Source of the DNA: Candidatus Electrothrix yaqonensis
Lineage (GTDB): Bacteria > Desulfobacterota > Desulfobulbia > Desulfobulbales > Desulfobulbaceae
Direction of reading: 5' to 3'
Assembly (NCBI GenBank): GCA_047651235.1
Contig: CP178758.1
Span: 3,390,001-3,422,000, forward strand
Length of the DNA: 32,000 nucleotides
Shown: positions 1-31,604 of the stretch, piece by piece
Layout of the letters: each line of letters begins with the position of its first letter
Numbering within the stretch: the stretch's first letter is position 1
The notes under the pieces: model-generated
Database searches by the model: none
What the model was told of the DNA's origin: nothing
What the model saw: only the letters and a program-made list of their open reading frames with translations
Made by a program: the position numbers and the translations under genes

Positions 1-617
1 CTGGCTCTGCTGTGCAGGGCTTCGGAAATATTTCGCATAGCTCTCCCGAATCGGCTTGCGCCTCTCTGGGCCCGGCGGATCATGCCGCCCAGTTTTCCCA
101 GAGCTGCGAATGCACCGCGCATTCCTAGCGCCATCAATGAAATCGTCGGAGGACCGCCGATGAGTACGCTGGGCCCGGCAGGAACAGACAATACAGTACA
201 GGCGGGCAAGACCATGCATTTGGGAGGTTGGCCTTTAGCCCTAGGCGGGGGCGGCACACCGACAGCTTGGCAGCTGATCACCGGTAATCCAAGAAAACTC
301 TGAGCATCGCCGTCAAAGGCCACGGTGGAGCTGCCCATAAAGACTTCACTTTCATTGGTCGGTGGCGGTGGCCCGAACGGCCCGCCCATAGGGATATGGG
401 CCGGACATGCCTTGCCACCCGATCCGGCCTGGGCCCGCATCAGGCCGTTAATCTTGACCGTCCCCCCGATTATCGGAGCATAATCACAGGGATCCATGAC
501 GATTCCCACATAGGGATGCGGAATAGGTGTTGGCACCGGCCCGGCTGGGGTGGGAATCATGATAATGTGTGTATCAAGTCCCAAAATGGGATCAAAATGC
601 TTGGCCGCTATCGTCAT
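1..617 (-). CDS. PAAR-like (DUF4150-type) T6SS spike-tip/effector protein, N-terminal part; the CDS runs off the left edge
   Basis: Not in the ORF track because it is edge-truncated. I translated the minus strand by hand from the ATG at 617-615 to position 1 and found no stop. It begins MTIAAKHFDPILGLDTHIIMIPTPAGPVPTPIPHPYVG and later reads SVLIGGPPT. This Pro/Gly-rich pattern fits my memory of PAAR-like N-domains of T6SS toxins. The ATG overlaps the stop of the upstream gene (ATGA at 617-614). It lies two genes downstream of vgrG. Confidence 0.6.
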   Translation of the reverse strand, partial: MTIAAKHFDPILGLDTHIIMIPTPAGPVPTPIPHPYVGIVMDPCDYAPIIGGTVKINGLMRAQAGSGGKACPAHIPMGGPFGPPPPTNESEVFMGSSTVAFDGDAQSFLGLPVISCQAVGVPPPPRAKGQPPKCMVLPACTVLSVPAGPSVLIGGPPTISLMALGMRGAFAALGKLGGMIRRAQRGASRFGRAMRNISEALHSRA

Positions 618-1927
618 CCACCCACCTCCTGCACCTGCTTCGGACGCCAATCACGGGTGCCTGCGATCTCGATGATTTTTTGCTCGGTATGCGATGCCAA
701 GTCGCGATACGTCCCGTTCTGACAAAGGCGCATTATGGCCTCGCCCAGATAGGCAAAGGTACTTGTTTCCAGGGTCTCCTGATCCATTTTCCGCGCCGTT
801 TTCAGGCCGAGTGATCCGGCCTGAAATGCTTTGTCCTGCTCACCGAGCTGTTCATAACAGAAGGACGCAAGGCGGTGACAATCCAGCTCGACCCGCGCAT
901 CCCCCAGCTTCGCGGCCAGCGGAGCGGTTTCTGTGAATTGCTGCGCAGCATGTTCCCACTCATTGGCAGCGATGAATGCAGAGCCGCATCCCATCCGGGC
1001 TTGGAGGCGTAGCTGAGGACATGAGGTCCGTGCTTCTTCCAAGCCCTCAGTTTCTCCTTGAATGGCAGCAGCCTCAGCAGCCTGATATCGTGCCACTGCG
1101 TCGTTATGCTGGCCTGCATTGCTCAGCCCGCCTGCAAGTGCCATGTGAACAGGCACGGCAAGGTAAAACCAGGACTGAGCAGCAGCAAGTTTTACGGCTC
1201 GGTCGCCGAGTGTCAGGGCGGTTTTCACATCCTGCTCCTTAAGTGCATTGGTGAGCTTGACAAAGAGGTGTCGATACTGACCGCCAGGCTGATCAAGGTT
1301 CCCTCCGGCAACACTGAGTTCCTCCAGGGCGGAAGCCATATCAAGCTCAGGCTCCTGTATCCAGATCCGTTGCTTTTTTTTTGAGGAAAGTGTGCTGAAG
1401 CCGGGCGTGAGGGCGTTATCAAACAGGAGTATCCGTATCTGTTCCGGTGCTTCAAGGGAAAAACTGCAGAGCCAGCGTTGATAGGCTTCTACCTGCTCAA
1501 TCAGCTTGGGACGCAACACCAGCACCAGACGACTTTGGATCGCGTAATGCTGGAGAAAGGAGGAAAGGGTGTCGAGCAGCACGGTGATGTCCTGGACTGA
1601 GCTGCCGACCTGGGGAGGAAGCCAATCCGTGTCCAGACCAAGCTCGGCCAAATTCTCCTTTTCCGCTCCATACCAGTCGATCAGCTCCTGGCGCAGGGAA
1701 TAGCCATAAGCGGAAGAATTGTTAAACGCTGCCTGGAGCTGGAGAAAGAGATCTCCTGTCTGGCCAGCCTGTTCGTCCTCCTCCATTGCCAGAAAGGCTT
1801 CAGCCATACGTACCTCGTCAGGCTGGAAACGCCAGCAGAGAATCCGCGCCTCTTTATCCTTGGAGAATTGCATATACTCGTAGGATAAAAGCTGTAGTCT
1901 CCGAACGATAGGTTCATTGAATGCCAT
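614..1927 (-). CDS. Hypothetical 437-aa protein between vgrG and the PAAR-like gene; candidate T6SS adaptor/chaperone, function unknown
   Basis: It is a long ORF 8 nt downstream of vgrG and translationally coupled (ATGA) to the PAAR-like gene. The C-terminal half looks alpha-helical and TPR-like (AVARYQAAEAAA, EWEHAAQQF, CYEQLGEQDKAFQ). I recognise no adaptor family (DUF4123, DUF1795 or DUF2169). Confidence 0.7.
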   Translation of the reverse strand: MAFNEPIVRRLQLLSYEYMQFSKDKEARILCWRFQPDEVRMAEAFLAMEEDEQAGQTGDLFLQLQAAFNNSSAYGYSLRQELIDWYGAEKENLAELGLDTDWLPPQVGSSVQDITVLLDTLSSFLQHYAIQSRLVLVLRPKLIEQVEAYQRWLCSFSLEAPEQIRILLFDNALTPGFSTLSSKKKQRIWIQEPELDMASALEELSVAGGNLDQPGGQYRHLFVKLTNALKEQDVKTALTLGDRAVKLAAAQSWFYLAVPVHMALAGGLSNAGQHNDAVARYQAAEAAAIQGETEGLEEARTSCPQLRLQARMGCGSAFIAANEWEHAAQQFTETAPLAAKLGDARVELDCHRLASFCYEQLGEQDKAFQAGSLGLKTARKMDQETLETSTFAYLGEAIMRLCQNGTYRDLASHTEQKIIEIAGTRDWRPKQVQEVGG

Positions 1928-1935
1928 GATCTACC

Positions 1936-4119
1936 TCAGTTGACTTTGACCATTGCACCTGTAATGGTCACTCCAGAAGGATCAGCTTTTACATTGCCTG
2001 ATGCATCCAGTTCAGCCGAGGCGGTTCCCTTGACAGTGGCTTTCGCGCCGGACATGGTTGCATTTGCATCCAGCTTGACTTTTCCACCACCGCTGGCTTC
2101 GGCGTTCACATCCCCGGTGAGTTCGATTTTGCCGCCGCCGTTGGCTTCTGCTTTCACATCTCCGGTGAGTTCGACTTTACCGCCGCCGCTGGCTTCAGCG
2201 TTTACATCGCTGGTAAGTGTGACCGTACCGCCGCCGTTGGCTGCGGCCTTCACACCGCCGTCAAGCAGCACACTGGATCCTCCGGCGCTTGTTGTCAACG
2301 CATTGGCATCAAGTACGATCGCAGCTCCGCCGCCTGCACTGAGTGTGATTTTTCCCGGCACCATAGTGATGGAACTGCCGCCGCAGGTCAGAGAAATTTC
2401 AGAAGGGGCCTGGATACTCACTGTACTGGTGGTGTCGAGCTTGTAATTGCCGGTTACATTCACAATCCTGTCTCCGGCCTCCACAGTGAGGCTGGTGTTT
2501 CCTTTCACGGTCACCGACTGCGTCCCGGCCTGTACTGCCAAGGAGTCATTGCCGCTTTTCACTGTTGCGGAACGATCATTTTCTACAGTTGTAGTCATAT
2601 CCTTCTTGGCATACAGTGAAAAGTCCTCCGCCCCTTCCTGATCCTCCATATGCAGCTGATTGCCGCCGCCCGATTTGATCACGCTCTGGGTCTGATTTCT
2701 CCCTTTCACCGGACTTCCTGTCTCCGGGTTCGGCACCGATCCGGAGATGATGGGCCGGTCCGGATCGCCCTCAATAAAGGTGAGCAGCACTTCGGTATTT
2801 TTGTGCAGGGGGAAATGCATGCCGTAATCTGCCCCGGCATAGGGCTGCATCATCCGGCACCAGGCCGATGCCTTGCCGCTGCCCCGGCCGCTGCGGTCAA
2901 GGGGAAGGAGAACCTTATAGCGTCCCTCATCGTCCAGCTCGGCATATTGACCACTGGAGGCCGCGTCCACCTTGGCATTGAACGTGCCGGATATTTTCGG
3001 CTTCACTGCGGTCCGCTCCGGCCGGAACTGGACACCCGCCGGAATGCCGGTAAAGCTGTTGGCATAGAACATCGGCTCGTCCACAGGGGCCGTTGCCGCT
3101 GACAGGCCGGAGATCAGATACCCGGTCTGGTGGCCCTCGTGGCTGACCTCGGAGAGCAGATATTTTTTATTGTACGCCTTGGTATAATGTTCCTGCAGAT
3201 CAAAGGTAAAGCCGGGTGTCATAAAGGGAACAGAGCTGTTGCCGTAATAGACGGACTTCCTGCAGAGAAGTTCTTCCGCCCGTATCCCGGCCAGCCGGTT
3301 ACCCTCTTCTGGAGTCGGAAAATGCTCACCGTAGATATAAGTTTCGCCTCTGCCATCCGGATCAACTTCAGCTTTTCCCTCTATTGCTAGGGAGGGTTTG
3401 CGGTAATTGTAATCCTTAAGAAAGACCTGCTGGGGCAGCAGGTTGTGCCTGCAGAGAAATTCTTTGACCACCTCCTTGGTATGCAGGGAATCCAGACCGG
3501 ACTGGGGATTATAGATCAGATCCTTCCCCTGGGGCAGGTCGGTATGGGAGATTTTGGTGTCCGTGAAAATAGCCTTTTCGCCCTGCTCAGTCTGCTCAAA
3601 AAAGTAGTAGATACCTTCCCGTTCCGCCCATCGGGAAACAAAATTCAGATGGGTCTCACCGTACTGGCAGACGTACTCCAAGGGCTGGTAGTCGTTCTGC
3701 AGCTTGAACTCGAAGTCGATGCCGCTGACCAGACCGCATTCCTTGAGCACGGCCTCCAGAATATCCGGAACGGGCTGATCAAGGAAGACCTGGTTATGGC
3801 CGGTCAGGGAAAGCCACTGCAGCTTGGGCATAAGCACGGCTTTAAAGAAGAGATAACCGTTGAACTCCTGGGTTTCCTCGAACTGCATGAGGATGCCGTG
3901 GAAGCTTACATCCTCCTCACCGTCCCGGTGGATGGTGAAGACAGCGGTGTTCTGGAGCACCTGGAGGGGATCAATATCCTTTGTCTCTGAGATCAGGACG
4001 ATCTCGAACCGGTAGGGGGTGGAGAACGCCTCAAAGCCGGTGAAACTGACCACGGCAAAACTGTCCGGGGCTGCTGCTTTGGAGACAAAAGAGTATTTTC
4101 TTTTAGTCAGAAGAGCCAT
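1936..4119 (-). CDS. vgrG: Type VI secretion spike protein VgrG (TssI)
   Basis: The sequence has the VgrG/gp27-gp5 signature: FEIVLIS, CQYGETHLNFVSRWAEREGIYYFFEQ, WCRMMQPYAGADYGMHFPLHKNTEVLLTFIEGDPDRPIISGSVPN. The C-terminus is a Gly-rich beta-helix. I prefer the ATG at 4119 (MALLTKRKY) because GGAGGG lies about 7 nt upstream; the ORF track extends to 4203. Confidence 0.9.
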   Translation of the reverse strand: MALLTKRKYSFVSKAAAPDSFAVVSFTGFEAFSTPYRFEIVLISETKDIDPLQVLQNTAVFTIHRDGEEDVSFHGILMQFEETQEFNGYLFFKAVLMPKLQWLSLTGHNQVFLDQPVPDILEAVLKECGLVSGIDFEFKLQNDYQPLEYVCQYGETHLNFVSRWAEREGIYYFFEQTEQGEKAIFTDTKISHTDLPQGKDLIYNPQSGLDSLHTKEVVKEFLCRHNLLPQQVFLKDYNYRKPSLAIEGKAEVDPDGRGETYIYGEHFPTPEEGNRLAGIRAEELLCRKSVYYGNSSVPFMTPGFTFDLQEHYTKAYNKKYLLSEVSHEGHQTGYLISGLSAATAPVDEPMFYANSFTGIPAGVQFRPERTAVKPKISGTFNAKVDAASSGQYAELDDEGRYKVLLPLDRSGRGSGKASAWCRMMQPYAGADYGMHFPLHKNTEVLLTFIEGDPDRPIISGSVPNPETGSPVKGRNQTQSVIKSGGGNQLHMEDQEGAEDFSLYAKKDMTTTVENDRSATVKSGNDSLAVQAGTQSVTVKGNTSLTVEAGDRIVNVTGNYKLDTTSTVSIQAPSEISLTCGGSSITMVPGKITLSAGGGAAIVLDANALTTSAGGSSVLLDGGVKAAANGGGTVTLTSDVNAEASGGGKVELTGDVKAEANGGGKIELTGDVNAEASGGGKVKLDANATMSGAKATVKGTASAELDASGNVKADPSGVTITGAMVKVN
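2074..2265 (-). repeat. Four tandem 48-bp units inside the vgrG 3' end, encoding 16-aa beta-helix repeats GGGK(V/I)ELTGDV(K/N)AEA(S/N)
   Basis: Direct reading gives units at 2074-2121, 2122-2169, 2170-2217 and 2218-2265. The middle two are near-identical at the DNA level. Confidence 0.85.
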
Positions 4120-4280
4120 AGCGTTTCCCTCCTTTGTATTTTCAGGCCGGTCGTCTTGCAAATGACATGCAATTAGGAATTCACGAAAATAACTATACCC
4201 CATATTGACAGGGGATTCCAGAGAAATAAATTGGAATAGACTTGTTCCTTTTTAAAAATCGGGTAAACTTCACGAAAAAA

Positions 4281-8094: not shown

Positions 8095-10089
8095 ATGCTA
8101 AAAAAAATTTTCAGCGAGAAAAACGGCAGATACTTCCTTTTTTTTACAACTCTGACTCTTGTTTTTTTCTCACATCCTTTTCTGAAAATTCCTTTTGACA
8201 TATGGTGCCATTTAATGCTATTGAGGGGATTGTATGATGAAGGAAAGATCTTTCTTTTCTGGCCCGGTCAACACGTCGGAATTCTGACGACCTGGCATTA
8301 TGTATGGTATGTTATCTTTAAGCTGCTCCATATAAACGATACGCTGGCTTGGGCAAAAATTATTCATGTTGCTCAGACAATTCTCTCATTGATCCTTGTT
8401 TTTTTCTCGTCAAAAATTTTTCTTCGTTTAATTCTGCCGAAAATTAAAGATTTTCCTTTGGACTATCTGGCCTTTCTGGGAGTTGTTTCCTGGTTTGCAG
8501 GCTCAGGAACTTATTCAGTGAATGTTCAACAGGCATGGCTTATGTGGTACTCTGTAGGATATCAAATAACACTGCCGCTGTATCTGTTTATTTCTGCTTT
8601 AACACTGAAAATATTTTACGGAAAAATGAGCAGAGCAAAAAAAAATTATTCTATTGTGTTGATATTGATAGTAACATTTTTCACAGTAAAAACTCATCCG
8701 TCAGAGACATTCTATTTTATTCTTTTTGTTTGCTTTGTTTCTATCTTGAATTTTGATATTACAATCGAAATATTCAAAAAAAAATTCCTTATACTGATTC
8801 CGTCTATCATCGCGTTCACTCTTCTGATTATCTACGGAGTAGATATATGGCAAAAGTTTACAAGACATTTTAAGACTGATTCCTTATTAAAGGAATTTAT
8901 CATAATGGATAATCATATTAATATAATAGAAAAGACAAAAATCTTATCAAGTAATTCAGAGTTGACTGTTATCTCTATAATATTAGGGTTATTAATCGGT
9001 ATTAAATACGGCATCTTAAAAAAAGGATCATATGTTATCAATAAAAAAGTTTTTTTTACTTTGTTAATCATATCAGTTTTATTCTTTTTTATTCCAGTCA
9101 CTCCGTACATTAGGGCGTTGTTTGGAATGATCATGCAGGCAAGCCGTACGTGGAGAATTGTTCTTGCGTGTCCGTTTTTCATTTTTTATCCGATCTTCTG
9201 CTATTTGTTCTGTCAAAAAATTCTAAAAAAAGATGATGGCAGGTTTACTTTTATAACGGGTGCTGCTGGCCTGTTGATTCTGATTGTACTTTCCAGATTC
9301 CTGATGTGGAACACGCTGTATCTGAACACGAAATCACTCGTGAATTCCGTATTTTTTAAGGAAAAAATAACCATGCAGTATACAGATGCAACCGTAAAAA
9401 GACTGGAGGGGCTGCTTGAATCCGCTAAAGCGCAGTGCAGGAGCGGGAAATGCATGTACTATATGCGGGGAGATATGGCATATATAGCCAGAGCGGTTTT
9501 AGGAGAATACGTCTATCAGAGAAGATGGAGACAACCGAATTTTCACCATCAAGTTGGCGGATTTCAGGTTATCCCTATTCAACTTCCCGACAATATGCCC
9601 AAGGATGAAAAGATATTTAAATCGTTCGATTTAAATGAGATACTCCCTTTACTGAAGCCGGTATACCATTTCCGGAGGAAAAATGATGGATCGCCTTTAT
9701 ATACCATTCGGGAAACGGAGAAAAATAATCTGCTGCATAACGATCTGATCTGGAAATACGAAGGTATTGCATACTATGCGTATCCTGGTCAGAAACGTGG
9801 CACGCGCCCTGTTCATCGTTTCTGGACGAGCTACCAATCTCATTTCTACACAATTTCAAAGAAAAAAATACTGAATGATCATCCTGACTGGAAATATGCA
9901 GGTATTTCCTGGTATGTGTATAAAACACAACAGCCGGACACGGTTCCTGTATACTTTTTTTGGAATGACAACTCCCGATCTTATTTTTATACAGCTTCGG
10001 AAACCGAAAAAAATGACATGACAAGCGATGGTTCAAACTGGAAATATCAAGGTATTGCTTGGTATACATTGACCAAAGGGGATAAGTAA
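8095..10089 (+). CDS. Polytopic membrane protein (about 400-aa multi-TM N-domain) with three C-terminal repeats of about 45 aa (DUF5648-like)
   Basis: A 664-aa ORF in a visibly AT-rich segment with many hydrophobic helices. The C-terminus has three repeats of the pattern PVY.F...(S/H)(H/Y)FYT.SE.EKN...WKY(E/A/Q)GI(A/S)(Y/W)Y, covering about nt 9661-10075. This fits my memory of Pfam DUF5648 repeats. Confidence 0.8.
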   Translation: MLKKIFSEKNGRYFLFFTTLTLVFFSHPFLKIPFDIWCHLMLLRGLYDEGKIFLFWPGQHVGILTTWHYVWYVIFKLLHINDTLAWAKIIHVAQTILSLILVFFSSKIFLRLILPKIKDFPLDYLAFLGVVSWFAGSGTYSVNVQQAWLMWYSVGYQITLPLYLFISALTLKIFYGKMSRAKKNYSIVLILIVTFFTVKTHPSETFYFILFVCFVSILNFDITIEIFKKKFLILIPSIIAFTLLIIYGVDIWQKFTRHFKTDSLLKEFIIMDNHINIIEKTKILSSNSELTVISIILGLLIGIKYGILKKGSYVINKKVFFTLLIISVLFFFIPVTPYIRALFGMIMQASRTWRIVLACPFFIFYPIFCYLFCQKILKKDDGRFTFITGAAGLLILIVLSRFLMWNTLYLNTKSLVNSVFFKEKITMQYTDATVKRLEGLLESAKAQCRSGKCMYYMRGDMAYIARAVLGEYVYQRRWRQPNFHHQVGGFQVIPIQLPDNMPKDEKIFKSFDLNEILPLLKPVYHFRRKNDGSPLYTIRETEKNNLLHNDLIWKYEGIAYYAYPGQKRGTRPVHRFWTSYQSHFYTISKKKILNDHPDWKYAGISWYVYKTQQPDTVPVYFFWNDNSRSYFYTASETEKNDMTSDGSNWKYQGIAWYTLTKGDK

Positions 10090-11690: not shown

Positions 11691-12422
11691 TTATACCCCC
11701 AATCCTCCACCATTGATCCTGAGCCATTCTTTCTGCACCGCATAATCCGGCAGCACCGTAGCAAGAAACCGCCAGAAGCGTGGTGAGTGATCCGGATGTA
11801 CCAGATGGCAGAGTTCATGCACTACCACGTAATCCACTACAGAACGCGGGGCTGCAATGATCCGCCAGTTGTAATAGATACGACCGTCCGCATGGCAGCT
11901 GCCCCAGCGTGACCGGTAGCTTTTGATCCCGACAGAAGCAGGAACTACAGTCATCTGTTGCGCGTAGCGTGCTGTTATTTCCTGCAGGCGCACAACCGCA
12001 TGTTCTCTGAACCAGGATACAAGCTGCTCCCTGATCAGGTACTCACGCTGCTCCTGTACAAGACCGGAGGGCAGCGTCACGTAGAATCTGCCGTTGATCA
12101 GCTTGACCCGCTGCCCCGCCGGATCATCCTGCCCGTTGTCCTGCACACCCTGCACAACTTTGAGCCGGTAATTGCGGCCCAGATAGGGGAAGCATGCACC
12201 GGAGACATACTGCTTTGCTCGGCTATTCTGCCGTATCTTCTGAAAATGGGCTATCTTTCCCTTGATCCAACTGCTTTTCCGCTGCACCAGTTCCTCTATC
12301 TGCTCCTCCTGCAGAAAAGAGGGCACCAGCACCCGGACAGAGCAGTTCGGACCGACCGATATACAGGCGGTCTTTCTGCGCGGACTTCTGATAATTTCGT
12401 AGGTAAAAGGTATGGTGTTCAT
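11691..12422 (-). CDS. M48-family / DUF45 (YgjP-like) zinc metallopeptidase
   Basis: A 243-aa protein with the HExxH motif VVHELCHLVHPDHSPRFW near the C-terminus and SRWGSC upstream of it. This is the typical DUF45 architecture. Confidence 0.85.
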   Translation of the reverse strand: MNTIPFTYEIIRSPRRKTACISVGPNCSVRVLVPSFLQEEQIEELVQRKSSWIKGKIAHFQKIRQNSRAKQYVSGACFPYLGRNYRLKVVQGVQDNGQDDPAGQRVKLINGRFYVTLPSGLVQEQREYLIREQLVSWFREHAVVRLQEITARYAQQMTVVPASVGIKSYRSRWGSCHADGRIYYNWRIIAAPRSVVDYVVVHELCHLVHPDHSPRFWRFLATVLPDYAVQKEWLRINGGGLGV

Positions 12423-12452: not shown

Positions 12453-13079
12453 TTATTGTTTTGTCAACCAGTTATTGTTTAAATAGCACTCATGCACATC
12501 CTCAGCAAGTCTTGTGAGGATGAGCTGACTAATCCTGCTGAACTGATCTATTCTTCTTGAATCCATGAGCATTTCCTGATCGCCATGTGCAATATTATTC
12601 CTGAAACGTAACAACTGATTGAGGTCTTTTTCATCTTCATTGGTCAGAAAATTTTCAACACCGATAGAGGCGCAGATTTTTGCAAATACCTTGGGGGTGA
12701 TATTTGACTCTGTGTTTATGCTACCCGGCAACTGTGCAGTGCCGTTCACTGCATTGCGGATTTTACTGACAATTTTTTGCTGTTGTATGAAATTCGTTAC
12801 AGGATTTTCGAGTGAACAGGCTCCTCCAATAGCCAAACAGAGAAATGGTTCAGAAAGATCGGAGACCTTCTCCAATTTTCGATTAATATGCCCGAAAAGT
12901 TGACCGGTTAATTCCCGAACGCCACCTTCTAAAGCTGCATAAATCAGCAGAACGCATGCTCCGCGCAGCAACTTTTTCTGCTCTTTGGTTTTGGCGAGCA
13001 GTACTGCTCTTTTTGCCAGCCCAATATCTGCCTGTCTGCGATCTACAATTTCGGCAAGAGCCTCAGAAAAGTCAGGCAT
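12453..13079 (-). CDS. HEPN-domain protein (predicted RNase; resembles the RiboL-PSP / MAE_28990-type HEPN families)
   Basis: A 208-aa protein with the C-terminal Rx4H motif LLRFRNNIAHGDQ and the N-terminal helix LLIYAALEGGVREL. It overlaps the upstream DUF262 gene by 8 nt and is AT-rich. Confidence 0.7.
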   Translation of the reverse strand: MPDFSEALAEIVDRRQADIGLAKRAVLLAKTKEQKKLLRGACVLLIYAALEGGVRELTGQLFGHINRKLEKVSDLSEPFLCLAIGGACSLENPVTNFIQQQKIVSKIRNAVNGTAQLPGSINTESNITPKVFAKICASIGVENFLTNEDEKDLNQLLRFRNNIAHGDQEMLMDSRRIDQFSRISQLILTRLAEDVHECYLNNNWLTKQ

Positions 13080-14142
13080 TTTTAAAGATTTCTTTTGCCC
13101 TTTTTATTCTTTTTCTGACACGGGCTTGGTAATTTGAAGAAGCCCCTGTCGCAGATAAAAAATCTTTATCCTGAAGCAGTTTCCGGATTTTTTCAGCAAC
13201 TTTTTCAGGATTTTTTTCAAAAGAATCTATTTGATATGCGATTCCCATCATAATACCGTCATATCTGGACGGAGAGAACGAGTAATTCCTACCGTGAAAA
13301 ACATTTTCAATATTTATCTTTTTTACAACTTGCAGGGTTCTAAGGAAGAGATCTTTATTCCCTTGAAAAAGGCTGTGATCAGCCGACGCTTTTCTCATAT
13401 ATTCAGTGAGGTGACTGCCAAGATTTCTTTCTGGCCCAAAATTTTTTTCAGACTCCTCAATCCAAAGCAGCGCATAAAATCTCACGACAAGTTCGTCCAA
13501 GTAGAGTTGAGATTTCTGTCGTTCAGTTGGTCTGACCAAGGCAATCAGATCTTTGTTATTCGACAACTCACGAACTTCATTTGCCAATTCATTTCCGCTT
13601 CCCCGAAAAATACAGTTTCGCACCTCCTGCTCCGTCAGTGGCGAGCCTCCAGTATTAAGCCGATTAAATAGCTCATAACGCATATCATATCGGGAGTCCC
13701 ATTTTATAACCTCAACCCGTACTGCACTACGTTTGATATTAAGCTGAAGTTTTAAAGGCAGGTCATCAATTTTTTTCCCTGCCAAATTAGTTACAAGATC
13801 GCCTTTGCACATTGCCCAGCCGTTTTCCTTGGAAGACTCTTCCCCTATCAATTTGCCGAAAAACGATAGCACCGTGCTGACTCGTTGCAACCCATCGACG
13901 ATTTCCCATTTACCTTCATCGTCTTCAGCGATAAATATTGAAGGTATGGGAATACCACATAATATAGATTCGATGAAACGAGTTCTCTGGTAAATACCCC
14001 ATCTGAAATATCGTTGAAATTCCGGATCAATAATCAATTCACCTGCATCATACATATTTATCAGCTCACCAAAACTCATATCCAGTCGGTCCGCCGAGAG
14101 CGTATTTCTAGCCTTGATCAATTCCTGTTCTAAGTCGATCAT
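13072..14142 (-). CDS. DUF262 (ParB-like / GmrSD N-terminal-type) domain protein lacking a DUF1524 nuclease domain
   Basis: A 356-aa protein with the motifs IIDPEFQRYFRW and WEIVDGLQRVSTV (DGQQR-type). No HNH/His-Me motif is seen in the C-terminal half. AT-rich. Confidence 0.85.
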   Translation of the reverse strand: MIDLEQELIKARNTLSADRLDMSFGELINMYDAGELIIDPEFQRYFRWGIYQRTRFIESILCGIPIPSIFIAEDDEGKWEIVDGLQRVSTVLSFFGKLIGEESSKENGWAMCKGDLVTNLAGKKIDDLPLKLQLNIKRSAVRVEVIKWDSRYDMRYELFNRLNTGGSPLTEQEVRNCIFRGSGNELANEVRELSNNKDLIALVRPTERQKSQLYLDELVVRFYALLWIEESEKNFGPERNLGSHLTEYMRKASADHSLFQGNKDLFLRTLQVVKKINIENVFHGRNYSFSPSRYDGIMMGIAYQIDSFEKNPEKVAEKIRKLLQDKDFLSATGASSNYQARVRKRIKRAKEIFKNA

Positions 14143-14166
14143 CCGTTATGTATCCTTCAAGTTTTT

Positions 14167-14193
14167 AATCTGACAGCCCGGAGCCGTCAGATT
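14167..14193. terminator. Stable hairpin between glmS and the DUF262 gene; candidate terminator/insulator
   Basis: AATCTGACaGC-ccgga-GCcGTCAGATT. The T-tract (ATTTTTAAATTT) is on the plus-strand side and only an A-tract on the glmS (minus) side, so its polarity is ambiguous. Confidence 0.4.
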
Positions 14194-14213
14194 ATTTTTA
14201 AATTTACAGTCCG

Positions 14214-16052
14214 TTATTCCACAGTCACACTCTTAGCCAGATTCCTGGGCTGGTCCACATCGCAGCCGCGCCGGTTGGCGATTTCATAGGCAAGGAGCTG
14301 GGCCGGGATGGTGTAGAGCAGCGGGTTCAGCTCCTCATGCACTTTGGGGAGATAGAGCACGTCATCGGTCAGTTGGGCAAGATGGGTGTCGCCCTCGGTG
14401 CCGATAAGCAGCAGTCTGCCCTGGCGGGCCTTGATCTCCTCCACATTGGAAATGCTCTTCTGATACACTGCATCCTGCGGCACAATGGCCATGATCGGCA
14501 TGTCCTTGTCAATCAGGGCGATGGGGCCGTGCTTCAGTTCTCCGGCAGCATAACCTTCCGCATGGATATAGGAAATCTCCTTGAGCTTCAGGGCGCCTTC
14601 CAGGGCAATAGGGAAATTCAGGCCCCGGCCGACAAAGAGAAAATCCTTGGCATCATAATACTGCTCGATCATCTCCCGAATCTGCTTCTGCATGACCGGC
14701 AGGGTGCTGTCGATTACCGCAGCGATTTCAATCAGGGCAGCTCCCAGCTCTCTGAGCTGCTCCTGCGTAACGGTCTGCCGGACTTGGGCAAGATACAGGG
14801 TGAAAAGAAAAAGGGCAGAAAGCTGGCTAGTAAATGCCTTGGTCGAAGCCACGCCGATTTCCGGCCCGGCATGGGTGTAGATGACCCCATCCGCCTCTCT
14901 GGTCATAGTGGAACCGACCACGTTGCAGATGGTTACCACTCTGGAACCCAGTGAGGCCGCGAGCCGAATTCCGGCCAGGGTATCGGCGGTTTCACCGGAC
15001 TGGGAAATGGAGATCGTCAGGACCCGCTCATTGAGCAGCAGTCGGCGGTAGCGGAATTCCGAAGCAATATCCACCTCAACCGGAATACCGGCCCATTTTT
15101 CAATCCAGTATTTGGCCACTAGGGCTGCATGCCAGGAGGTGCCGCAGGCCACCAGGGCAATCCGTTCAATTTTGCACAGCTCTTCATCGGAAAGACCGAT
15201 TTCCGGCAGATCAACTCGACCGGTATCCGGAACAATCCTGCCGCTCACCGTATTGAGCACGGCCTGGGGCTGCTCATAGATTTCCTTGAGCATGAAATGC
15301 CGGTACCCGGCCTTTTCCGCCATTGCCGCATTCCAGTCAATGATCTTGACTTCTTTCTCGATCGTCTGACCATCTTCAATGCCCATGACCTGGTACGATC
15401 CCCTCTCTAGGACAGCCAGCTCATGATCGTCCAGAAAAACAACCTCCTTGGTATAGGGCAGCAGGGCCGGAATATCCGAAGCCAGATAGCAGGCATCCTT
15501 GTCCACGCCCATGACCAGAGGGCTCTGATTGCGGGCTGCCACCAGCCTGTCCGGGTCTTTCAGCCACATCACGCCCAGAGCATAGGAGCCGTCCACCCGA
15601 ATCAGGGCCGTGCGCACGGCGGCCACCAGATCATCTTCAAGATATTTTTCAATCAGATGGGCCAGCACTTCAGTGTCGGTCTCCGAGGAAAAGACATGCC
15701 CCTCATCGGCAAGCTCCTGTTTCAGGCTGCCGTAATTTTCAATAATCCCGTTGTGGACCACCACCAGTTCGCCGGTGCAGTCGGAATGCGGATGGGCATT
15801 GTCCTCGGTCGGAGCGCCGTGGGTGGCCCAGCGGGTATGGCCGAGACCGGTATGGGCGTCTGCGCCGATATACTCGTCCACGGCCTTTTCCAGGTTCACC
15901 AGCTTGCCGGCAGCCCGGAATTTAACCAGTTTATCCTGATGATGATAGACAAGACCTGCTGAGTCGTATCCCCGGTACTCCAGACGACGCAGACCCTCCA
16001 GCACAACCGGAATGACTTTCCGGTTTCCGATATACCCGACTATTCCGCACAT
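14214..16052 (-). CDS. glmS: Glutamine--fructose-6-phosphate aminotransferase (isomerizing)
   Basis: A 612-aa protein with N-terminal MCGIVGY, two SIS domains and the C-terminal DVDQPRNLAKSVTVE. Confidence 0.97.
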   Translation of the reverse strand: MCGIVGYIGNRKVIPVVLEGLRRLEYRGYDSAGLVYHHQDKLVKFRAAGKLVNLEKAVDEYIGADAHTGLGHTRWATHGAPTEDNAHPHSDCTGELVVVHNGIIENYGSLKQELADEGHVFSSETDTEVLAHLIEKYLEDDLVAAVRTALIRVDGSYALGVMWLKDPDRLVAARNQSPLVMGVDKDACYLASDIPALLPYTKEVVFLDDHELAVLERGSYQVMGIEDGQTIEKEVKIIDWNAAMAEKAGYRHFMLKEIYEQPQAVLNTVSGRIVPDTGRVDLPEIGLSDEELCKIERIALVACGTSWHAALVAKYWIEKWAGIPVEVDIASEFRYRRLLLNERVLTISISQSGETADTLAGIRLAASLGSRVVTICNVVGSTMTREADGVIYTHAGPEIGVASTKAFTSQLSALFLFTLYLAQVRQTVTQEQLRELGAALIEIAAVIDSTLPVMQKQIREMIEQYYDAKDFLFVGRGLNFPIALEGALKLKEISYIHAEGYAAGELKHGPIALIDKDMPIMAIVPQDAVYQKSISNVEEIKARQGRLLLIGTEGDTHLAQLTDDVLYLPKVHEELNPLLYTIPAQLLAYEIANRRGCDVDQPRNLAKSVTVE

Positions 16053-27591: not shown

Positions 27592-28101
27592 GAGGTGGAT
27601 GAGAAGGTCTGTCTGTTCGCAGTAACATCCGTAAGTCTAGCAGGTTAAAGTCCTGTCCGGGAATTGTCCGTACGCCCCGGTAGTATGAGGAAGCGGCGTT
27701 GTAGAGATGCAAGGTCGTGAGTTTCCCCCCAACAATAAAGCAGGCCGTAACGCAAGTGAACCTATGAGTAGCCTCGTAAACTAATTGGAGGAGCCGACCC
27801 TGTGGACGGAAGGGGAAGGCCGTTGGATGGGTGCCGGAATAACGGAAGTGGCACACGTTGACTCCCGGGGTAGCAGGGATGGCATGTTTTAGAAGATTTG
27901 CAGACCAGTGCTGGAGACCCGTCTCCGGGGGTGGTGAGAGCACCAACCGATGCGTATAAGGAAACGAAATCGCAGAGGCCCGAAGCGGGAGTCGGAGGGG
28001 TTCATAGTACCGTTCGAGACCTTGGGACAACATAACCTAGGTCAAGGGAAGGAACCCTGCTTTGTTCATGCAACCAAAGAGTGGAGGATCAGGGGATTGC
28101 C

Positions 28102-29415
28102 ATGTCGCTAGTCACCCCGGAAAAGATCAGGACGCTACAGAGGAAGCTGTATATCAAGGCCAAGCAGGAACCGGCCTATCGCTTCTACGCACTTTACGAC
28201 AAGATTTTTCGGGCTGATGTTCTCAATCACGCCTGGAGGCTTGTTCGTGCCAATGGAGGAAGCCCTGGAGTAGACGGGGTGAGCTTCAAGGCCATAGAGG
28301 GCGGGGTAGGGGTAGGAACGTTTCTTCTGGAGCTGGCCCATGATCTGAAGGAAAGAAAATACCAGGCCCAGCCTGTTCGCCGTGTCATGATACCCAAAGG
28401 TAACGGAGATTTTCGTCCGTTGGGTATTCCGACGATACGTGATCGGGTCGTGCAAATGGCGGTAAAACTGGTTATTGAGCCGATTTTTGAGGCGGATTTC
28501 TGTGCGCATTCGTATGGATTTCGTCCTGGAAGGTCGGCCCACCATGCCGTGGATGATATTGCCAATACGCTCTGGGCAGGCTGCACAAAAGTCATAGACG
28601 CTGATCTGTCGAAGTATTTTGACACTATTCCACATAATAAACTGCTGATCGTAGTGGCTGAACGCATTGTAGACGGGAGCATATTGCACCTTATCAAACA
28701 GTGGCTCAAGGCACCTGTAATCGGTGAAGACGATTGTGGAAAGAAGAAAACTGTAGGAGGCGGGAAAGGCAATCGGAAAGGTACACCGCAAGGTGGTGTG
28801 ATCTCACCGTTGTTGGCTAACTGCTACCTGCATATTCTGGATCGTGTATGGCAACGACGGAACCTCAAGTTCAGGCTGGGGGCGCATATTGTCCGCTATG
28901 CGGATGATTTTGTAGTGATGTGTCGAGGCGATGTAGAGAAACCAATGGAAGTGGTGCATGATGTGTTGAACCGACTTGATCTTACACTCAATGAGGACAA
29001 GACGCACGTCGTGAACGCCGCTGAAACAGGTTTCGATTTTCTTGGTTTTACAATTCAGATGAGTCGGGGTGCTCGAAGCGGTAAACCGTATCCCAATGTA
29101 CGACCGTCGGATAAGTCGCTGAAGAGAGTGAAAGCGAGGCTGACGGAACTGACAGACAGGAAGCTGACCTGCATTCCTCTGAGTGATGTGGTGGGCAATG
29201 TAAATCGCAGCCTTCGTGGCTGGGTGAACTATTTCCACTTTCGTAACTCAAGCATGGCGATGAGCAAGGCGAGGCAACATGCGGAAGACCGACTGAGAAT
29301 ACACCTGATGAAGCGCCATAAGGTCAGGGACAGAAAAGCGGCTTTATGTCGTTTTCCCCGTCGTGATCTCTATGAGTGCTATGGGCTGTACAAGGTTTCT
29401 GGAAAAGCGGGCTGA
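28102..29415 (+). CDS. Group II intron reverse transcriptase/maturase (En-minus)
   Basis: RT motifs GSPGVDGVSF, RVMIPKGNGDFRPLGIPTIRDRVVQ, TPQGGVISPLLAN and YADDFVVMC, followed by the X/maturase region LRGWVNYF. There is no C-terminal HNH motif. The start is the ATG at 28102 or the GTG at 28081. Confidence 0.9.
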   Translation: MSLVTPEKIRTLQRKLYIKAKQEPAYRFYALYDKIFRADVLNHAWRLVRANGGSPGVDGVSFKAIEGGVGVGTFLLELAHDLKERKYQAQPVRRVMIPKGNGDFRPLGIPTIRDRVVQMAVKLVIEPIFEADFCAHSYGFRPGRSAHHAVDDIANTLWAGCTKVIDADLSKYFDTIPHNKLLIVVAERIVDGSILHLIKQWLKAPVIGEDDCGKKKTVGGGKGNRKGTPQGGVISPLLANCYLHILDRVWQRRNLKFRLGAHIVRYADDFVVMCRGDVEKPMEVVHDVLNRLDLTLNEDKTHVVNAAETGFDFLGFTIQMSRGARSGKPYPNVRPSDKSLKRVKARLTELTDRKLTCIPLSDVVGNVNRSLRGWVNYFHFRNSSMAMSKARQHAEDRLRIHLMKRHKVRDRKAALCRFPRRDLYECYGLYKVSGKAG

Positions 29416-29450
29416 AGAACGGCGCATGCCTCGGTATGAAGAACATCGGA

Positions 29451-29483
29451 AAGCCGTGTGCGGGAAAACCGCACGCACGGTTT
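29451..29483 (+). ncRNA. Group II intron domain V (catalytic hairpin)
   Basis: AAGCCGUGUGCGG-GAAA-ACCGCACGCACGGUUU: an AGC triad, a 2-nt bulge on the 3' strand and a GAAA tetraloop. Confidence 0.8.
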
Positions 29484-29694
29484 GATGAGGGAGCATTGAG
29501 GAAGCAAGCACTTGGTACACGTAGTAGCCGCGTGCGGCGAGGCGTCTGTAAAAGGGCCAGGATTACTGCTGAATCAGTGCTCTACTCTACCGACTGTTTC
29601 GATGTGAAAAATATGATCATTTTATTCTGCTTTTCAAGTCGTTACTGTTTGTTTTCTATCAAGAAGGTGTCGTTTTTGAGGATAAGGTGTAACC

Positions 29695-30822
29695 ATGAAG
29701 GGTAATAATTTTTTTGAAGAGCAGAAAGAGCAGTCCTTGGTTAAGTCTACAATTGTGGCAAAATACTTTGACGCTTGGTCTGCTGTCATAATCAGTACTC
29801 AGAAACGTTACCCTCAGCATCCCCAGAAAATAGCTTATATTGATCTTTTCGCAGGCCCAGGTCGTTATGATGATGGCAGTCAGTCAACCCCGTTAAAAAT
29901 ATTAACCAATGCCATAGACAAGCCTGATTTATGTGAACGACTTGTAACCATATTTAATGATAAGGACGAGGATAAGTCGGGAAAATTAAGGGAAACAATT
30001 GCAGAAATTCATAGGATTGAAGAACTGAAATACAAGCCGCAGATTTACAACCAAGAAGTTGGCGAAAAGATCGTTCGCATGTTTGAAAGCATGAATTTGG
30101 TTCCGACATTATTCTTTGTTGATCCTTGGGGATATAAAGGTTTATCTCTTAGGCTTGTTAACTCGGTATTAAAAGACTGGGGGTGCGATTGTATCTTTTT
30201 CTTTAACTACAACAGGATCAATATGGGACTGAGTAATCCCTTTGTCAAGGAACACATGGATGCCCTGTTCGGACAAGATCGGGCTGATGAACTGAGACCA
30301 AAACTTGCTCAAACCTCTCCAAAAGAGAGGGAGTTAATAATAGTTGAAGAACTTTGTCAAGCGATTAAATCCTATGGCAGTCGCTACACTTTGCCTTTTA
30401 GATTTAAAGATTCAAAGGGAAAACGAACAAGCCATCATCTTATTTTTGTCAGCAAGCATTTTCGCGGTTATGACATCATGAAGGATATCATGTCTCGTGA
30501 AAGTACAAGCGACACAGAAGGTGTGCCTTCATTTGAATACAATCCCGCTGACTTTTTGCCAAAGCAGACTCTTTTGTTTCAACTTTCCCGTCCAATTGAT
30601 GATCTAAAAAATGATTTGCTGGACAACTTTGCAGGTCAAAGACTCACAATGGAAAAAATTTACGAAGAACACAACGTAGATACTCCTTATATTAAAAAGA
30701 ATTATAAGGATACGTTACGTACACTTTATGATGAGAATCTCATTGATGCAATTTCGTTAAAAGGGAAGCCGCCACGTAAAGATACATTCGGTGATAAAAT
30801 TATAGTTACTTTTCCAAGGTAA
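29695..30822 (+). CDS. TcmP-like protein (three-Cys-motif partner protein family) with methyltransferase-like motifs
   Basis: A 375-aa ORF in AT-rich DNA, 5 nt upstream of a DUF5131 gene; that pairing defines the TcmP family. The N-terminus FFEEQKEQSLVKSTIVAKYFDAWSAVI fits my recollection of the family. It contains YIDLFAGPGRY (SAM-MTase motif I-like) and FFVDPWGYKG (motif IV-like). Confidence 0.6.
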   Translation: MKGNNFFEEQKEQSLVKSTIVAKYFDAWSAVIISTQKRYPQHPQKIAYIDLFAGPGRYDDGSQSTPLKILTNAIDKPDLCERLVTIFNDKDEDKSGKLRETIAEIHRIEELKYKPQIYNQEVGEKIVRMFESMNLVPTLFFVDPWGYKGLSLRLVNSVLKDWGCDCIFFFNYNRINMGLSNPFVKEHMDALFGQDRADELRPKLAQTSPKERELIIVEELCQAIKSYGSRYTLPFRFKDSKGKRTSHHLIFVSKHFRGYDIMKDIMSRESTSDTEGVPSFEYNPADFLPKQTLLFQLSRPIDDLKNDLLDNFAGQRLTMEKIYEEHNVDTPYIKKNYKDTLRTLYDENLIDAISLKGKPPRKDTFGDKIIVTFPR

Positions 30823-30827
30823 AGAAA

Positions 30828-31604
30828 ATGGCCACAAGTAAGATAGAATGGACGGAGGCAACTTGGAACCCTGTTACTGGCTGCTCAAAAATCAGTGAAG
30901 GTTGCGTTAACTGCTATGCCGAACGGTTGGCGAAACGTCTCAAGGCAATGGGGCAAAAAAACTATGCGAATGGTTTTAATGTTACTCTCCATCCACATGC
31001 TTTAACTATTCCTTTGAAATGGAAAAAATCACGATTAGTTTTTGTAAACTCAATGAGTGATCTTTTTCATCATGAAGTTCCTCTAGAATTTATTCAGCAG
31101 ATCTTTCATATAATGAATCAAGCCAGCTGGCATCGTTTTCAAGTGCTGACAAAAAGGGCCGAGAGGCTTGCTGAGTTAGCCCCTTTTCTTAAATGGTCAG
31201 AAAATATATGGACGGGAGTTACTGTTGAGAAAGATACTTACTTAGACCGTCTTAAATACCTGAAAGAGGTTCCGGCTGCTATAAAATTCTTATCGCTTGA
31301 GCCTCTTTTGGGGCCAATAACTACTATAGATTTAACTGATATTCATTGGGTTATAGTCGGCGGTGAGAGCGGGCCAAATGCACGCCCAATGGAAAAAAAA
31401 TGGGTAATTGATATTCAGAAACAATGTATTGAGTTGATGATACCTTTTTTCTTTAAGCAATGGGGTGGTGTTAATAAAAAGAAAGCTGGAAGAATATTGA
31501 ATGGAAAGATATTTAATGAAATGCCAATCTTGAATAAGAGACAATTAAGTTTAATAAATATAAATAATAGCAAGATGGATATAAATAAAAAATATCCTGA
31601 CTGA
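30828..31604 (+). CDS. DUF5131 family protein (phage Gp37/Gp68 family, three-Cys motif)
   Basis: A 258-aa protein with IEWTEATWNPVTGCSKISEGCVNCYAE (C-x6-C-x2-C), VIVGGESGPNARPM and FFFKQWGG. These are the hallmarks of Pfam PF07505 as I recall them. Confidence 0.85.
   Translation: MATSKIEWTEATWNPVTGCSKISEGCVNCYAERLAKRLKAMGQKNYANGFNVTLHPHALTIPLKWKKSRLVFVNSMSDLFHHEVPLEFIQQIFHIMNQASWHRFQVLTKRAERLAELAPFLKWSENIWTGVTVEKDTYLDRLKYLKEVPAAIKFLSLEPLLGPITTIDLTDIHWVIVGGESGPNARPMEKKWVIDIQKQCIELMIPFFFKQWGGVNKKKAGRILNGKIFNEMPILNKRQLSLININNSKMDINKKYPD

Follow-up and report, generated by a model that had tools for sequence, protein, structure and literature searches.

A 32,000-nucleotide stretch of the chromosome of the cable bacterium Candidatus Electrothrix yaqonensis (GenBank assembly GCA_047651235.1, contig CP178758.1, positions 3,390,001 to 3,422,000; hereafter the window, in whose numbering positions are given) carries two overlapping genes, A and B, which encode a DUF262 protein and a HEPN protein respectively. 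The pair is likely to be a self-contained, horizontally acquired anti-phage cassette of the PD-T4-2 type, composed of a DUF262 nucleoside triphosphatase (NTPase) and a HEPN ribonuclease (RNase). Its nucleotide site and its HEPN site are intact, the two genes are strictly paired, both are under purifying selection and the unit is mobile; a defence function is suggested by analogy with PD-T4-2, and DUF262 is presumed to be the sensor in this family and HEPN the effector. Both proteins are identical (100%) to NCBI-annotated proteins of Candidatus Electrothrix sp. YB6, named ‘DUF262 domain-containing protein’ (gene A) and ‘MAE_28990/MAE_18760 family HEPN-like nuclease’ (gene B).

The architecture itself is not new. 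It was described in 2013, when Anantharaman et al. reported that the RiboL-PSP and MAE_28990 HEPN families occur ‘in operon with ParB’ (PMC3710099), and one pair was validated in 2022, when Vassallo et al. identified PD-T4-2 (‘DUF262, HEPN’) from Escherichia coli ECOR65 as a system acting against T4, deletion of which from ECOR65 restores T4 plaquing. PD-T4-2 and the Electrothrix pair are both stand-alone mobile cassettes in which the gene for a DUF262 protein of ~350 amino acids (aa), lacking DUF1524, precedes one for a small HEPN protein belonging to the RiboL-PSP/MAE_28990 families, and gene A matches the PADLOC profile PD-T4-2_A over its full length (3.6e-51, residues 25-354, model positions 41-362 of 363). 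They differ in that protein B has 208 aa, compared with the 168 positions of the PD-T4-2_B model, and in that the Electrothrix pair lies downstream of glmS on a cable bacterium chromosome, not in a prophage, and is known from sequence alone. A preliminary description of this DNA had proposed a two-component defence or abortive-infection system, a proposal which homology of architecture to the T4-validated PD-T4-2 now backs by analogy. The features of the pair are as follows.

12453..13079, minus strand: gene B, for a stand-alone HEPN protein (208 aa, RiboL-PSP/MAE_28990 type), predicted to be a metal-independent RNase
12585..12602, minus strand: Rx4H motif of protein B, R160-N-N-I-A-H165 (RNNIAHG being residues 160-166), where model helix 147-164 ends
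13072..14142, minus strand: gene A, a 356-aa DUF262/ParB-like NTPase resembling PD-T4-2_A and NsnA (ORF list, Pfam, PADLOC)
13072..13079, minus strand: A/B overlap of 8 nt, ATGCCTGA on the coding strand, gene B's start codon falling within the last nucleotides of gene A
13075..13590, minus strand: all-helical C-terminal half of protein A, residues 185-356, from the structure model; aligns to the C-terminal part of the NsnA model
13606..14070, minus strand: ParB/Srx-fold DUF262 domain of protein A, residues 25-179 (Pfam span), with the FQRYFRW, DGLQR and NRLNTGG motifs
13882-13896, minus strand: DGLQR, residues 83-87, read from the translation
13999-14019, minus strand: FQRYFRW, residues 42-48, read from the translation

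The list of open reading frames (ORFs) and the coding-strand sequence confirm the 8-nt overlap of stop and start that had been described earlier, and the quoted motifs (FQRYFRW, DGLQR, RNNIAHG) are all present in the translations. The overlap suggests that the two genes are translationally coupled.

The DUF262 and HEPN proteins

Protein A matches Pfam family PF03235 (GmrSD_N/DUF262) at 6.1e-26 over residues 25-179, and FQRxFRW, DGLQR and NRLNTGG are among the residues that are invariant in 28 of its homologues, which upholds the earlier reading of its motifs. The protein has 3392 homologues, and DGLQR is kept in 78 of 79 homologues from the loci described below. Its best PADLOC match is NsnA of the Menshen system (3.3e-61, residues 13-355, model positions 42-381 of 385); matches to SspE and HEC-06 are marginal and fall within the DUF262 part only, while among phage protein families it matches PHROG 2598 (1e-74). 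In an AlphaFold model (mean predicted local distance difference test score, pLDDT, of 79) the N-terminal half is of the ParB/Srx type and the C-terminal half consists of helices only. Foldseek matches of this model have weak E-values; BrxU 7p9k stands at the top (E 6.7e-3), and Noc/ParB CTPases, PadC and sulfiredoxin are also found.

The preliminary description held that protein A lacks the DUF1524 His-Me nuclease domain, and allowed that one might be hidden in its C-terminal half. A hidden domain can be ruled out, since no second Pfam domain, PF07510 included, is matched at E<=1, residues 185-356 are modelled as helical throughout, and neither an invariant histidine (in the alignment of 28 homologues) nor a beta-beta-alpha element (in the model) occurs there. 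The corresponding C-terminal domain of NsnA was termed ParBDB in the Menshen study, where it is predicted to bind DNA (PMC12065111), and by analogy the helical half of protein A probably does the same.

Protein B is matched by two Pfam HEPN models above their cut-offs, PF18737 (1.4e-19, 71.6 bits, cut-off 26.8) and PF18735 (1.6e-19, 71.0 bits, cut-off 28.4), the same two families that PD-T4-2B matches by HHpred (Vassallo et al. 2022), and it also matches PHROG 22325 (5e-17). At 50% identity its family (E<=1e-3) falls into 1489 clusters, nearly all of them stand-alone proteins of ~210 aa. Residues R160, N161, N162, I163, H165, G166 and D167 are invariant in 22 homologues, and RNxxxH followed by G occurs in all 30 distinct motif variants listed for the partners of gene A. 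The structure of protein B is modelled with a pLDDT of 91.4 as helices H1 (2-27), H2 (32-68, with the invariant E51), H3 (147-164) and H4 (174-200), with an insert at 69-146. In canonical HEPN domains the Rx4-6H motif ends helix 3, a polar residue follows the arginine, helix 2 bears an acidic residue and an insert separates helices 2 and 3 (PMC3710099); the model has this layout, with a four-helix core, R160-N161...H165 at the end of H3 and E51 in H2. The identification of the 208-aa protein as a HEPN domain from its motif was thus correct. The best biologically meaningful Foldseek matches of the model are the HepT HEPN toxins 7ae6, 7bxo and 6m6w, the match to 7ae6_B being weak (probability 0.75, E 0.65). 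HEPN domains typically dimerise, bringing two Rx4H motifs into one active site.

Pairing, spread and relation to known systems

One genome per GTDB species was scanned for relatives of gene A, of which at least 550 were confirmed, and the best 80 loci (L001-L080) were kept and searched for a partner with a hidden Markov model built from homologues of gene B. A homologous HEPN ORF lies immediately downstream on the same strand in 75 of the 80, or 75 of the 76 with room for one. Four of the five loci without a partner stop at a contig edge, and only L066 has an orphan gene A, followed by a nitroreductase gene. The two genes overlap in 42 of the 75 pairs and are separated by a gap of 0-15 nt in a further 32, so that 74 of 75 overlap or lie within 15 nt. 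Co-conservation of the two genes, which had been raised as a check on the original proposal, is therefore well established in these loci. Across the 80 loci no third gene, such as a methylase, is conserved within 4 kb of the pair.

The hosts of the best 80 loci include Desulfobulbales, Gammaproteobacteria, Bacteroidota, Bacillota, Cyanobacteria, Chloroflexota, Acidobacteriota, Campylobacterota and Patescibacteria, as well as archaea of the Methanosarcina and Methanoperedens types. Identities to the window proteins average 48.8% for A and 27.3% for B over the 75 loci and co-vary closely (Pearson r 0.90), which indicates that the pair moves and diverges as a unit. In five loci from Methylococcaceae/Methylobacter and a metagenome-assembled genome of a related uncultured proteobacterium (L036-L038, L065, L071) the cassette appears by eye to lie between ORFs resembling prfB (upstream) and lysS (downstream), a further example of the pair placed among housekeeping genes.

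Base composition agrees with acquisition from elsewhere. The pair has a GC content of 41.1%, and 38-42% at third codon positions (GC3), compared with 56.5% (GC3 67%) for the flanking glmS and 54.4% (GC3 62%) for the YgjP/DUF45 gene on the other side; the flanks as a group (glmS, YgjP-like and TPR genes) have a GC content of 54-57% and a GC3 of about 62-68%. The mean for the window is 50.5%, and only 8% of 1690-nt segments match the AT-richness of the pair. In 63 of 67 loci, likewise, the GC content of the cassette is below that of its flanks, and the mean difference is 9.9 GC points. Such a contrast with the flanks is typical of mobile accessory genes. Genes like A occur in the genomes of temperate phages and both window proteins match PHROG families; with relatives on plasmids, in a prophage and in phages, and with the GC3 contrast to the flanks, both the AT-richness first remarked upon and its interpretation as the mark of an acquired cassette hold good.

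Several DUF262 or HEPN systems invite comparison with the pair. GmrSD, BrxU and SspE share with it the DUF262 NTPase domain and its DGxQR motif, BrxU being the top fold match of protein A; they are single polypeptides that cut with a DUF1524 His-Me nuclease, whereas the Electrothrix pair comprises two polypeptides with a separate HEPN output, and since DUF1524 is absent from both window proteins identity with GmrSD is ruled out. PD-T4-2, Dazbog and Menshen are DUF262 systems without DUF1524, and were described as largely uncharacterised in a 2023 review and in the 2025 Menshen study. In Menshen (NsnABC), NsnA has the same layout as protein A, a ParB-DUF262 domain followed by a helical C-terminal ParBDB domain, but the Electrothrix pair has neither the ABC-ATPase gene nsnB nor the inPIN-effector gene nsnC, and HEPN is its sole conserved partner. 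Identity with Menshen is excluded by the absence of NsnB and NsnC from the locus, and of any conserved ATPase neighbour from the 80 loci; in the Electrothrix pair the effector would couple directly to protein A, without an ATPase transducer. Neither window protein matches DzbA or DzbB of Dazbog (DzbAB) at E<=1 in PADLOC; a related partner from L077 matches DzbB marginally (0.0035).

From the HEPN side, the families surveyed in 2013 share with the pair a HEPN domain with a conserved Rx4-6H beside a ParB/DUF262 gene (PMC3710099). The survey entry for MAE_28990 also mentions DNA methylase genes, none of which lies near the window pair, and the RiboL-PSP family differs in that the window protein is not fused to an L-PSP endoribonuclease. 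HepT-MntA is likewise a two-gene operon with a small stand-alone HEPN RNase carrying Rx4H, but the partner in the window is a DUF262 NTPase and not an MNT nucleotidyltransferase antitoxin. Scores of gene B against the HepT-like family PF01934 (16.1 bits, cut-off 23.5) and NCBIfam HepT_toxin (15.6, cut-off 60) fall below threshold, and with the different partner this rules out identity with HepT-MntA.

Pairs of this kind are frequent in E. coli. No match was obtained when E. coli genomes were searched by blastn with a homologue from Symbiopectobacterium, and a search with a plasmid homologue found related E. coli pairs, though not the PD-T4-2 of ECOR65. One of these lies on the chromosome of E. 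coli 504239 (L088, 3916-5686), in a P2-like prophage between the cI and integrase genes, and encodes a 384-aa DUF262 protein and a 211-aa HEPN protein that match PD-T4-2_A (1.8e-55) and PD-T4-2_B (1.4e-8). Protein A is ~29% identical over its full length to the E. coli prophage protein whose partner matches PD-T4-2_B. Three variants are on plasmids: the pair of L083 adjoins pemIK, and that of L082, on a 3.9-kb plasmid that also has a VbhA-family antitoxin gene, has a partner which matches PD-T4-2_B at 4.4e-4. The HEPN partners of the plasmid and prophage pairs all belong to PF18735.

Residence on such plasmids, with pemIK or a VbhA-family antitoxin gene for company, is what a toxin-antitoxin or addiction module might display, in which a HEPN toxin would be restrained by the DUF262 protein and the pair kept through post-segregational killing or locus stabilisation instead of phage defence. 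HEPN RNases are classic toxins, as in HepT-MntA, and HepT provides the best fold matches of protein B; the 8-nt overlap would suit the fixed co-expression ratio typical of toxin-antitoxin pairs, and the cassette stands alone, with no other defence genes beside it. We nevertheless consider this explanation unlikely. PD-T4-2 guards its native strain against T4, protein A, an NTPase of 356 aa whose catalytic motifs are invariant, far exceeds a simple antitoxin in complexity, and one gene A occurs without B (L066). It is in any case a partial rival only, because a toxin-antitoxin role and abortive infection are compatible.

The unequal divergence of the two proteins bears on how their roles are divided. 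Protein A is 42-55% identical even between bacteria and archaea, and B diverges about twice as fast. Were the roles reversed or doubled, protein A would be the DNA effector (a nickase, nuclease or clamp) and the HEPN protein would serve as the subunit for specificity or sensing, or as another effector. The faster divergence of B (27% versus 49% identity over 75 loci) would be expected of a component that faces phage factors, A has stayed strikingly similar in bacteria and archaea alike, and ParB domains in such operons were treated as DNases in the 2013 survey (PMC3710099). In GmrSD, BrxU and SspE, the DUF262 enzymes examined to date, however, DUF1524 cuts DNA and DUF262 is the NTPase or sensor (PMC10952713), and the conserved arginine, asparagine and histidine residues of the HEPN motif argue for a predicted active RNase over a mere sensor. 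We regard the reversed or doubled arrangement as quite improbable, and retain DUF262 as the presumed sensor and HEPN as the presumed effector.

The locus downstream of glmS

Two further features adjoin the pair.

14166..14194, minus strand: hairpin with a 13-bp stem, within the spacer of 71 nt that separates the stop of glmS from the start of gene A (fold -22.7 kcal/mol, z = -4.1)
14214..16052, minus strand: glmS, with SIS and GATase Pfam domains; the cassette lies directly downstream in the same orientation

Among the 80 loci, the order glmS-A-B recurs only in Candidatus Electrothrix laxa (L001). The regions beyond it differ: in E. laxa, arylsulfotransferase genes lie upstream and recJ lies downstream; in YB6, the order is bounded by Nudix and phosphoribosyltransferase genes at one end and by YgjP and TPR genes at the other. 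When the two species are compared, gene A has a ratio of non-synonymous to synonymous substitution rates (dN/dS) of 0.059, gene B one of 0.095 and glmS one of 0.056, at similar dS for the three genes (1.2-1.6). Both genes are thus under purifying selection and, given the low dN/dS, the similar dS and the shared order, the pair has probably been inherited together with glmS since the two Electrothrix species diverged.

We also considered a Tn7-like insertion at the 3' end of glmS, for which there is no support: linkage to glmS is seen only in E. laxa among the 80 loci, neither the window nor L001 contains transposase or Tns-like genes, and the similar dS of glmS and the pair fits old co-inheritance better than repeated targeting.

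No sigma-70-like promoter was found on the coding strand of the 71-nt spacer, so read-through from glmS is possible. The hairpin in the spacer is partly conserved in the E. laxa spacer and is possibly a structure for transcript ending or processing. With its T-run on the plus strand, it resembles an intrinsic terminator that would act on transcripts antisense to the cassette and not on those of glmS.

The pair might instead be left over from an old insertion downstream of glmS and be inert today, without a function, which would accord with its AT-rich, foreign composition, with a spacer in which no sigma-70-like promoter was found and with the lack of mobility genes nearby. We judge this very improbable, as both ORFs are intact and have every family-invariant residue, the pair is constrained like glmS (dN/dS 0.06-0.10 over dS 1.3-1.6 against E. 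laxa), and the order glmS-A-B has been held in both species despite their differing surroundings. A functional, acquired cassette is the better account of the locus.

A setting in a defence island, which the preliminary description had put forward as worth surveying, was not found here, the neighbours being glmS and genes for a YgjP-like peptidase, a TPR protein, a Nudix protein and a phosphoribosyltransferase. The YgjP-like/DUF45 metallopeptidase gene (11691-12422, minus strand) starts 30 nt past the HEPN stop on the same strand and has a host-like GC content of 54%. A YgjP-like gene is also found near the pair of a Saprospiraceae locus (L032, 7953-8636, minus strand), on the opposite strand to the pair, which is probably a coincidence.

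Further low-GC patches occur in the window at 8.0-10.0 kb and 29.5-32 kb. The first corresponds to a gene at 8095-10089 on the plus strand (GC 36%, locally down to 29%) for a 664-aa protein that has a C-terminal DUF5648 domain and is hydrophobic over its N-terminal two-thirds, probably a multi-pass membrane protein; like the pair, this patch looks foreign and lies downstream of glmS. The other follows a group II intron at 27647-29590 on the plus strand, recognised by Rfam models RF02005 (D1-D4, 27647-27880) and RF00029 (29449-29590), whose ORF (28081-29415) encodes a reverse transcriptase/maturase (RVT_1 and GIIM). Just past the intron, 29695-31604 (plus strand, GC 37-41%) encodes in two adjacent genes a 375-aa protein that carries a GMT-like winged helix-turn-helix domain and, beside it, a 258-aa DUF5131 protein (8e-99), and looks like another acquired two-gene cassette. 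Elsewhere in the window, a VgrG-like type VI secretion spike gene (1936-4203, minus strand; Phage_GPD, Gp5_C and DUF2345) is followed by a 437-aa ORF without a Pfam match (614-1927, minus strand), possibly a cargo or effector.

Proposed mechanism and significance

By analogy with better-known relatives, A and B would be co-produced and would assemble into a latent complex. DNA would be bound by the DUF262 protein, whose nucleotide site at DGLQR would act as a switch through the binding or hydrolysis of nucleoside triphosphate (NTP), as in GmrSD, BrxU, SspE and ParB. Foreign DNA, for example modified or replicating phage DNA, may trip this switch, so that the HEPN protein is released or licensed; active HEPN dimers would then cut RNA, whether tRNA, rRNA or mRNA, and bring translation and phage growth to a halt.

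Several observations tell against an anti-phage cassette of the PD-T4-2 type. Gene B matches no PADLOC family at E<=1, PD-T4-2_B included, and the same model is unmatched by 10 partner HEPN proteins from related loci (11 with the window protein), although it does match the E. coli partners noted above. When the gene B group is compared with the E. coli prophage HEPN as profiles, only the motif region aligns (E 0.023), and homology of B therefore rests on shared Pfam families and not on direct similarity. Foldseek matches are weak for both models (E 0.007 or worse), and the locus lies outside a defence island among housekeeping or unrelated genes. The faster evolution of B than of A is odd if it is A that recognises phage. 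Finally, no study of the mechanism of PD-T4-2 was found in the literature searched, and the roles of sensor and effector are assigned by analogy.

Strict membership of PD-T4-2 is consequently unsupported for B. With A matching PD-T4-2_A and B not matching PD-T4-2_B, a divergent subtype is indicated, and on sequence comparison the Electrothrix pair is classified as a divergent, MAE_28990-type member of a PD-T4-2-like DUF262-HEPN class. A bolder proposal, which we hold tentatively and consider rather doubtful, is that the Electrothrix clade forms a distinct, unannotated DUF262-HEPN subtype, defined by a conserved DUF262 protein of ~350 aa and an MAE_28990-type HEPN protein of ~210 aa, in which the RNase is licensed directly by a nucleotide-gated DNA clamp of the ParB type, without an intervening ATPase, and phage-facing specificity resides in the fast-evolving HEPN protein and not in the DUF262 protein. 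If true, such a subtype would offer a simple model of the way in which RNA-targeting effectors are connected to NTP switches of the ParB type.

Nothing in the pair overturns current understanding. DUF262-HEPN pairs have been validated once, as PD-T4-2, with no mechanistic study to be found in the literature searched, and what the present comparison describes is a unit of strictly two genes, widely transferred and probably translationally coupled, without any other conserved partner. It offers a compact system for studying the control of an RNase by a ParB-like NTP switch. As the PADLOC PD-T4-2_B profile misses the Electrothrix clade, tools that use this profile probably under-count systems of this kind. 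Cable bacteria, for their part, gain one likely anti-phage gene pair, situated beside glmS in at least two Electrothrix species.

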